Source: a virus
Lineage: Duplodnaviria; Heunggongvirae; Uroviricota; Caudoviricetes
IMG/VR virus record: IMGVR_UViG_2703718805_000010
Strand: one strand, 5' to 3'
DNA: 12,579 nt
A model generated the notes under the pieces. The model did not search any database. It was not told the DNA's origin and saw nothing but the letters and a program-made list of their open reading frames with translations. The position numbers were made by a program, and so were the translations under genes. This document shows positions 10,018 to 10,392 of this stretch, one piece after another. Numbering within the stretch: the stretch's first letter is position 1; the number at the start of each line of letters is the position of its first letter.

Positions 10018-10392
10018 ATGGAATTTAAAGATTTACCAATGCCATTCCAGGAAATGGCAGCGAATGTGGTTCGCTCTCAACTGGCGACTCTTGACCTGAG
10101 TACCGTAGAAAAAGAAACCATCGACAATATATCTGGTAACGTACGCCGAGCCTTTATCGGGCTGTACGAAGAGAAGCAGCTCTCTGATAACCAGGATTTA
10201 CATGAAAAATACTTTCTGGAATTAATGGACATCATTAATAAAGGATTTGGCTTGTTAATGAAAAAGAAAGGGATTCGAATAGCTCCCCTTGAAAATCATT
10301 TTACAGCAAGCAGTATTAATTCCTGTGATTTAAAGCATCACACATCCGATGGGAAAGTTGAATCAAACAACAAAATATCGATTAATCATTAA
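10018..10392 (+). CDS. hypothetical protein (124 aa), possible inserted accessory gene between ydfC-like and DicF
   Basis: ATG 10018 with GAGG SD 6 nt upstream; protein-like composition (MEFKDLPMPFQEMAANVVRSQLATLDLSTVEKETIDNISGNVRRAFIGLYEEKQ...). No family recognised. I do not recall a gene at this position in the K-12 dicB operon. Confidence 0.5.
   Translation: MEFKDLPMPFQEMAANVVRSQLATLDLSTVEKETIDNISGNVRRAFIGLYEEKQLSDNQDLHEKYFLELMDIINKGFGLLMKKKGIRIAPLENHFTASSINSCDLKHHTSDGKVESNNKISINH

Follow-up and report, generated by a model that had tools for sequence, protein, structure and literature searches.

Among cryptic-prophage loci, the dicBF operon is a textbook case, and its products, the small RNA DicF and the protein DicB, act in cell division, metabolism and phage resistance. 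Small early-left proteins typically act on a host protein through binding: DicB binds MinC, Kil binds FtsZ, Gam binds RecBCD and Ral binds EcoKI. In the Qin prophage of Escherichia coli K-12, the dicBF operon is arranged in the order ydfA-ydfB-ydfC-dicF-dicB-ydfD (PMC5069750). Furthermore, counter-defence genes are over-represented in variable regions that have conserved sequence on either side (bioRxiv 10.1101/2023.04.06.535777). The models of dicBF have been built on K-12, which carries an empty version of the slot between ydfC and DicF. Roughly one complete E. coli genome in eight, with STEC O26, O111 and O157 strains among them, carries at this slot the full-length gene of an extra protein on the same predicted transcript, and some loci contain a convergent gene as well.

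The stretch of DNA analysed here, hereafter referred to as the window, comprises 12,579 nucleotides of a virus of the Caudoviricetes (IMG/VR record IMGVR_UViG_2703718805_000010). Its + strand encodes ydfA (DUF1391; 9462-9617), which is recognised by Pfam, ydfB (9619-9747) and ydfC (9777-9995), all three of which are annotated in a 99.9% identical RefSeq locus. These genes are followed by the 124-aa ORF discussed below, a conserved untranslated DicF leader (10393-10698), the DicF sRNA itself (10699-10750; Rfam RF00039, 75.8 bits), dicB (10925-11113; Pfam DicB, E 6e-37) and a ydfD-like DUF1482 gene (11110-11298; Pfam). The sizes of ydfA, ydfB, ydfC and dicB (51, 42, 72 and 62 aa) are matched in the RefSeq locus, where an exonuclease gene, xis and int lie beyond the ydfD-like gene and adjoin ompW. 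The initial annotation had described the operon as collinear with Qin, and this description is borne out by the gene order and by the RefSeq sizes.

The place of DicA is taken by a CI/LexA-type repressor with an HTH and an S24 peptidase domain (8473-9189, + strand; Pfam HTH_3 and Peptidase_S24; a 'LexA family protein' in RefSeq), and a Cro-like regulator is encoded divergently (8208-8423, − strand; Pfam P22_Cro, E 7.5e-15, and RefSeq annotation). The repressor presumably controls the operon. Since an S24 domain is a self-cleaving peptidase domain, the copy of dicBF in the window is probably SOS-inducible, judging from the domain content of the repressor. The 124-aa ORF belongs to this operon, as it is co-directional, is placed between ydfC and DicF, and has dicB and ydfD on its 3' side and the divergent cro/repressor pair on its 5' side. 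Two further elements were observed in the prophage. A perfect inverted repeat, GGTAAC-TCTT-GTTACC, is located at 9270-9285 between the terminator of the repressor gene and ydfA and may serve as the operator for early-left transcription. In addition, Rfam places a sok antitoxin RNA at 3727-3907 on the − strand (RF01794, 61 bits versus a gathering score of 59), a match that implies a hok/sok-type module in the replication or late region of the prophage.

The ORF itself (10018-10392, + strand; a hypothetical protein of the WP_000394528.1 type, PHROG 6937) starts with an ATG that is preceded at a distance of 6 nt by the Shine-Dalgarno sequence GAGG (10008-10011). It can be divided into three segments. 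Codons 1-53 (10018-10176) encode an N-terminal helix-loop-helix domain (MEFKDLP...GLYEEK) that forms the family-defining core. Codons 54-90 (10177-10287) encode a polar linker and a third amphipathic helix, with which the allele-specific C-module and the AT-rich part begin, and codons 91-124 (10288-10389) encode a predicted disordered tail with the conserved end ...ISINH. The GC content is 0.32-0.35 at 10180-10420, compared to 0.43-0.49 in the 5' half of the ORF and 0.45-0.55 in the flanking sequence; the AT-rich portion corresponds to the exchangeable C-module. The window contains many spurious ORFs of at least 100 aa and, therefore, the length of the ORF alone does not rise above chance. An antisense ORF of 52 aa within it (10077-10235, − strand) was taken to be a chance occurrence.

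Evidence that the ORF is a gene comes from elsewhere. The protein matches phrog_6937 from end to end (E 5.7e-78, residues 1-124 versus profile positions 1-124), is annotated by PGAP as WP_000394528.1, and is present in exactly this form on at least 1000 contigs, always as a hypothetical or uncharacterised protein. Comparison with divergent alleles yields an overall dN/dS of ~0.2. The mRNA of the ORF shows no RNA-structure signal (fold z −1.29), and together with the clear constraint at the protein level this led to the rejection of the ORF as an RNA element. The earlier view of a well-initiated ORF of 124 codons with an AT-rich 3' half is thereby upheld, and that it is truly coding follows from the Shine-Dalgarno sequence, a dN/dS of 0.1-0.35 in every segment, its occurrence in hundreds of genomes and the full-length PHROG match.

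A consensus scan of positions 9150-11400 detected no terminator-like site on the + strand, including the interval between ydfC and DicF. The sole promoter-like match near the ORF, at 9992-10019, is weak and ends inside the ATG. This agrees with the initial proposal that the ORF rides on the repressor-controlled transcript, as far as a consensus scan can tell. Because the ORF is co-directional with the operon, no terminator-like site intervenes and the promoter-like match ends in the start codon, its expression would be expected only upon inactivation of the HTH and S24 repressor. A moron, for which flanking + strand terminator-like sites and a usable promoter were sought, was rejected on the same grounds.

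An alignment of the window with K-12 Qin shows a single large difference, a clean gap of ~361 bp that corresponds to ~10031-10391 of the window and on both sides of which the flanks align at high identity. The ORF is thus extra relative to K-12 Qin, as had been noted at the outset. K-12 lacks the gene, and in the alignment the counterpart of the GAGG motif is a mutated AAAG. K-12 does retain the distal part of the 5' UTR (GGTTAGTAATTAAGGAGTTCTCCACGG) of a reverse gene that is found in other loci (see below), with no gene attached to it. Given this remnant and the mutated forward Shine-Dalgarno sequence, the empty K-12 slot looks like the result of a deletion of the cassette and not like the ancestral state. 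The window shows no trace of the 5' UTR/RBS of the reverse genes, and the DicF leader starts directly after the stop codon of the ORF. The initial wording, 'accessory insertion', can therefore be kept in part: the patchy distribution and the mosaic structure agree with an accessory gene, but an insertion is probably the wrong direction of change in view of the remnant in K-12.

With ydfC as the anchor, loci can be sorted into discrete classes by the length of the interval that separates ydfC and DicF. The most frequent class, of ~342 nt, is the empty slot of the K-12 type, the class of ~703 nt contains the 124-aa ORF alone as in the window, and the class of 931-995 nt contains a family member together with a convergent small ORF on the minus strand. 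The DicF leader, ~300 nt of non-coding sequence, is 87-98% identical in all of the slot variants, with a fold z-score of only −1.46.

The gene is widespread in E. coli. Megablast with the DNA of the ORF yielded matches in 896 of 5426 complete genomes, with at least 80% of the ORF covered in 672 of them, and the ORF with both of its junctions was found in 689. Carriers include O26:H11, O111:H8 and an O157:H7 strain. Escherichia albertii carries the 124-aa gene directly after ydfA, in a locus without ydfB and ydfC (L088, 3989-4375), where a possible 5' extension of four codons (MRLT) overlaps the ydfA stop codon. The initial annotation named no homologue and treated the ORF as a peculiarity of this operon. 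Neither point holds: hundreds of homologues exist, all of them uncharacterised, and the same gene occupies the same position in 672-689 of the 5426 E. coli genomes and in E. albertii. It is conserved at this site in many Qin-type operons, though not in that of K-12 itself.

The family is narrow, as an exhaustive HMMER scan of 1.84 billion representatives returned only 41 clusters at the threshold of E ≤1e-3. The same scan found no relative of the C-module outside the family. A profile search of 5.8 billion proteins retrieved only fragments from Escherichia and Salmonella, and the matches in the species genomes of GTDB were limited to E. albertii and a single Xenorhabdus locus. The family is thus essentially one of the lambdoid and Stx phages of Escherichia and Shigella, with occasional members in Salmonella and one distant member in Xenorhabdus. 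Some homologues have other neighbours. In Stx2a phages, which have neither DicF nor dicB, the homologue is likewise encoded in early-left accessory territory, where recT, exo, ssb and a DUF2303 gene precede it and a PAPS-reductase gene comes next. In phage Evi it is part of an operon with Kil in place of DicB. In Xenorhabdus stockiae (L090, 1341-2019), the gene order is a CI-like repressor, a 109-aa ORF containing an arginine-rich motif of the N-like kind (RRHARRKAEA), a 50-aa homologue that consists of the N-domain only, and a convergent 60-aa ORF that overlaps the stop codon of the homologue. As homologues reside in these three contexts, the function of the protein is not tied to DicF or DicB.

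The family is held together by the N-domain, which by itself, as residues 1-51 to 1-63, matches phrog_6937, 1363, 2151, 9419 and 33007, and which can also exist alone, as in the phrog_9419 profile (64 positions) and the 50-aa ORF of Xenorhabdus. After residue 53, family members continue with unrelated sequence. At least six unrelated C-terminal classes, and likely more, are joined to the 53-residue hairpin. They include a 122-aa type (P0097), a 133-aa type (P0100), a 135/201-aa type (phages PPompW and Evi), a 142/147-aa type (Stx2a phages) and types of 179-208 aa, next to proteins of 50-64 aa that consist of the N-domain alone. N- and C-modules reassort among alleles (P0071, P0080), megablast coverage breaks at nucleotides 159/160 of the ORF in many genomes, which corresponds to the boundary of codons 53 and 54 (10176/10177 in the window), and within single pairs the N- and C-terminal halves have different dS values (L086). 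Codon 53 is, therefore, a sharp recombination junction.

Structure prediction agrees with this division. A first AF2 model was poor, with a pLDDT of 57.8, and a second, using an alignment of 74 sequences, was moderate overall, with a pLDDT of 65.1 and a pTM of 0.50. The predicted hairpin consists of helices 8-23 and 32-54 (pLDDT 83-89), followed by a third helix at 60-84 (pLDDT ~65) and a disordered tail at 92-124 (pLDDT <50). The protein is mildly acidic (pI 5.9; GRAVY −0.45) and, with a maximum 19-residue Kyte-Doolittle mean of 0.52, has no transmembrane segment or signal peptide. It is predicted to be a small soluble all-alpha protein.

Taken together, the ORF is very probably a real, co-transcribed accessory gene with a modular architecture. 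In the preferred explanation, a lambdoid prophage inserted beside ompW carries it as a translated accessory component of its early-left operon (PL-type, dicBF), and removal of the CI/LexA-type repressor would lead to its transcription together with ydfABC, DicF and dicB. The 53-residue helical hairpin would form the invariant core of a phage family centred on Escherichia, able to exist alone and providing a common docking or oligomerisation surface. The third helix and the disordered tail would represent one of several interchangeable C-modules, with the C-module setting which host or competitor factor is bound. Acting early after induction, the protein might then serve as a host-takeover or counter-defence factor. 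The gene is dispensable for the function of the operon, since K-12 and most dicBF operons do without it. Stoichiometric binding as the counter-defence mechanism is put forward tentatively. Against it count the moderate structure model, the lack of a likeness to known anti-defence, toxin or defence families in the collections searched, and the fact that lambdoid phages typically shuffle modules through neutral mosaicism, too. The binding mechanism and the counter-defence role are suggested by analogy with the small proteins of PL operons and by the accessory-region concept (bioRxiv 10.1101/2023.04.06.535777). Confidence in the explanation as a whole, being a blend of a very secure gene and architecture with a tentative mechanism, falls a little short of even.

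Elsewhere among dicBF loci, a small ORF converges on the forward gene from its 3' side, and the stop codon of this ORF overlaps or abuts that gene. At least five unrelated coding sequences of 63-92 aa have been seen in this position (R0-R4), and reverse genes are found on the − strand at 3606-3826 in locus L055, 3886-4119 in L003, ~3603-3881 in L063, ~3540-3815 in L012 and 2865-3086 in L087. Three of them match PHROGs of unknown function (phrog_7249, 10348 and 18692), and searches of four reverse-gene products against Pfam and PHROG returned only such unknown-function PHROGs. All of the reverse genes have one 5' UTR/RBS in common (CCTCAGGAGGGTGAAATG). By comparison of the loci, cassettes appear to be swapped between the first 53 codons of the forward gene and the shared 5' UTR of the reverse genes; no published description of this structure of the ydfC-DicF slot was found.

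This arrangement raises the alternative that the ORF in the window is the orphan half of a convergent two-gene cassette, with its partner deleted. Such a cassette could comprise, for example, an effector and its neutraliser, or an exclusion or defence gene expressed in the lysogen and its lytic-phase antidote. The shared 5' UTR/RBS of R0-R4 would fit this, as would the remnant of that 5' UTR in K-12, the annotation of one reverse gene by PGAP, and the combination of a forward N-domain ORF with a convergent small ORF in Xenorhabdus. Moreover, each reverse gene is tied to a particular forward 3' end, and the tail type correlates with the presence and the type of the reverse gene. However, adjacent sequences in a single variable cassette should be linked simply because they lie close together, and the same C-module is found with no reverse gene (in the window), with R2 (73 aa) or, truncated, with R1 (91 aa). 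No convergent partner was found for the homologue in Stx2a phages, and the convergent, not co-directional, orientation of the small neighbour is atypical for toxin-antitoxin pairs. The forward-only form is, furthermore, the commonest ORF-bearing form (16 of 25 ORF-bearing loci with DicF; 689 genomes), a point in favour of the gene working alone. An orphaned half-cassette is, therefore, unlikely. A wider reading, covering the one 53-residue N-domain, at least six unrelated C-termini and at least five convergent genes, would make the ydfC-DicF slot an undescribed arms-race hotspot, in which the forward proteins could be a new class of modular counter-defence or host-takeover adaptors, and the reverse genes could encode defence or exclusion factors that are expressed in the lysogen and perhaps matched to the forward proteins. 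This reading is doubtful.

Searches for functional relatives of the 124-aa protein returned no significant match. Pfam gave only sub-threshold noise (VLPT, 16 bits versus a cut-off of 27), NCBIfam gave no matches, and the PADLOC-DB protein models gave no families at E values up to 1; no likeness to a known anti-defence, toxin or defence family was thus found in these three collections. Ten other C-terminal variants likewise yielded nothing above the Pfam threshold. Searches of the PDB with the single sequence and with an N-domain profile remained at noise level (best E 0.1-0.2). Foldseek retrieved from BFVD only a 52-aa N-domain homologue of phage phi191 (E 0.65), and from the PDB KIX-type three-helix bundles at a non-significant E of 3.0 at best. 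In the literature, neither the RefSeq accession nor the N-terminal motif was matched, and the supplements of an accessory-gene screen did not contain them.

Several specific classes were considered and rejected. For a toxin-antitoxin module, neither Pfam nor NCBIfam detects a toxin or antitoxin domain, and the window contains no small partner ORF from the stop codon to the DicF leader. A membrane superinfection-exclusion protein of the SieB, Cor or YdfD kind does not agree with the hydropathy values given above, and a polymorphic toxin does not agree with the absence of a Pfam domain from the window protein and the ten C-variants, of a signal peptide or transmembrane segment, and of a small downstream gene on the same strand. 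Toxin, exclusion and anti-defence roles had been raised in the initial annotation. The more general possibility of a toxin, abortive-infection or superinfection-exclusion factor that benefits the lysogen draws on the company the gene keeps, as dicB, DicF and ydfD are toxic or lytic upon expression (PMC5069750) and YdfD is called a 'lysis protein' in RefSeq, and on the patchy distribution of the gene. Yet a gene inside a repressed operon and without a recognisable promoter of its own would not be expected to be expressed in a stable lysogen. With no toxin match in PADLOC or Pfam, no cognate antitoxin gene adjoining the ORF in the window, and neither a transmembrane segment nor a signal peptide, in which it is unlike SieB- or Cor-type proteins, a role of this kind seems quite improbable.

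The pattern of selection bears on whether the ORF could be a neutral or decaying mosaic remnant, retained by linkage alone and without a current function. Neither K-12 nor the majority of dicBF loci have the gene, truncated alleles (87-113 aa) and partial fragments of it are common, and the tail is predicted to be disordered, all of which would be expected of a remnant. Nevertheless, dN/dS lies well below 1 in every segment, with 0.10-0.15 for codons 1-53, 0.09-0.14 for codons 54-90 and 0.29-0.35 for codons 91-124, where dS reaches up to 0.96. The tail is thus under relaxed yet continuing constraint. In addition, the full-length frame persists in E. albertii and in alleles whose identity ranges between 65 and 98%, and the N-domain retains 35-50% identity out to Stx phages and Xenorhabdus. 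A functionless remnant is accordingly a poor candidate, with little probability. Least credible by far is a cis or trans helper of the operon, whose translation would protect the long transcript or whose product would modulate DicF processing or DicB activity: the conserved DicF leader begins right at the stop codon and the gene is usually found together with DicF and dicB, but the untranslated stretch before DicF is similar with and without the ORF (306 versus ~340 nt), family members occur in operons lacking DicF or dicB (Evi, with Kil; Stx2a phages, with neither), and the ORF lacks an RNA-structure signal (z −1.29).

The preferred explanation of a modular accessory gene leaves a gene that is already present in the databases in large numbers as a hypothetical protein: real, widespread, uncharacterised and ordinary-looking. 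If its product binds a host or phage factor, it could alter what the induction of these prophages does to the cell, and the modular family would offer a convenient way into new functions in defence or counter-defence. Should the protein lack a phenotype, it would simply be one more of the mosaic ORFs of lambdoid phages. The layout of the slot, as it appears from the compared loci, may be the most interesting by-product of the analysis.

Compared to known systems, the closest relative of the locus is K-12 Qin, with which the window shares the gene order, a near-identical ydfC, the leader of ~300 nt, which aligns with few mismatches, and DicF, which differs by one mismatch only (position 10709, T for G, in ...GGTGACTTTTGG...). 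It differs from K-12 in that the K-12 slot is empty and in that DicA, to which the HTH of the window repressor is 54% identical, lacks the S24 peptidase domain. Moreover, DicB is only 63% identical between the two, with a nearly identical N-terminal half and most of the divergence in the C-terminal 30 residues. Among the PHROGs, 6937 matches the protein over its full length and 1363, 2151, 9419 and 33007 match its N-terminal 51-63 residues; all are listed as 'unknown function' and, therefore, membership conveys no mechanism. With DicB, Kil, Gam, Ral and CIII the protein would share its small size, solubility, repressor-controlled early expression, dispensability and operon neighbourhood, and it has no likeness to any of the five in sequence or fold.

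The conserved N-module, the interchangeable C-modules and the sharp recombination junction resemble Rhs/CDI-type polymorphic toxins and the mosaic Ea22/ead proteins of lambda. The present family differs from both in being tiny (50-210 aa) and in lacking a secretion or trafficking domain, a recognisable toxin domain and a downstream immunity gene on the same strand. The slot as a whole resembles the accessory hotspots of phages (bioRxiv 10.1101/2023.04.06.535777; PMC9122126), which likewise hold unrelated cargo, or none, between conserved flanks; here, these are formed by ydfC and the N-domain on one side and by the reverse 5' UTR and the DicF leader on the other. It differs from these hotspots in that its cargo does not match known defence or anti-defence families, and in that its variable unit cuts a coding sequence, with codons 1-53 of the gene forming part of the conserved flank.
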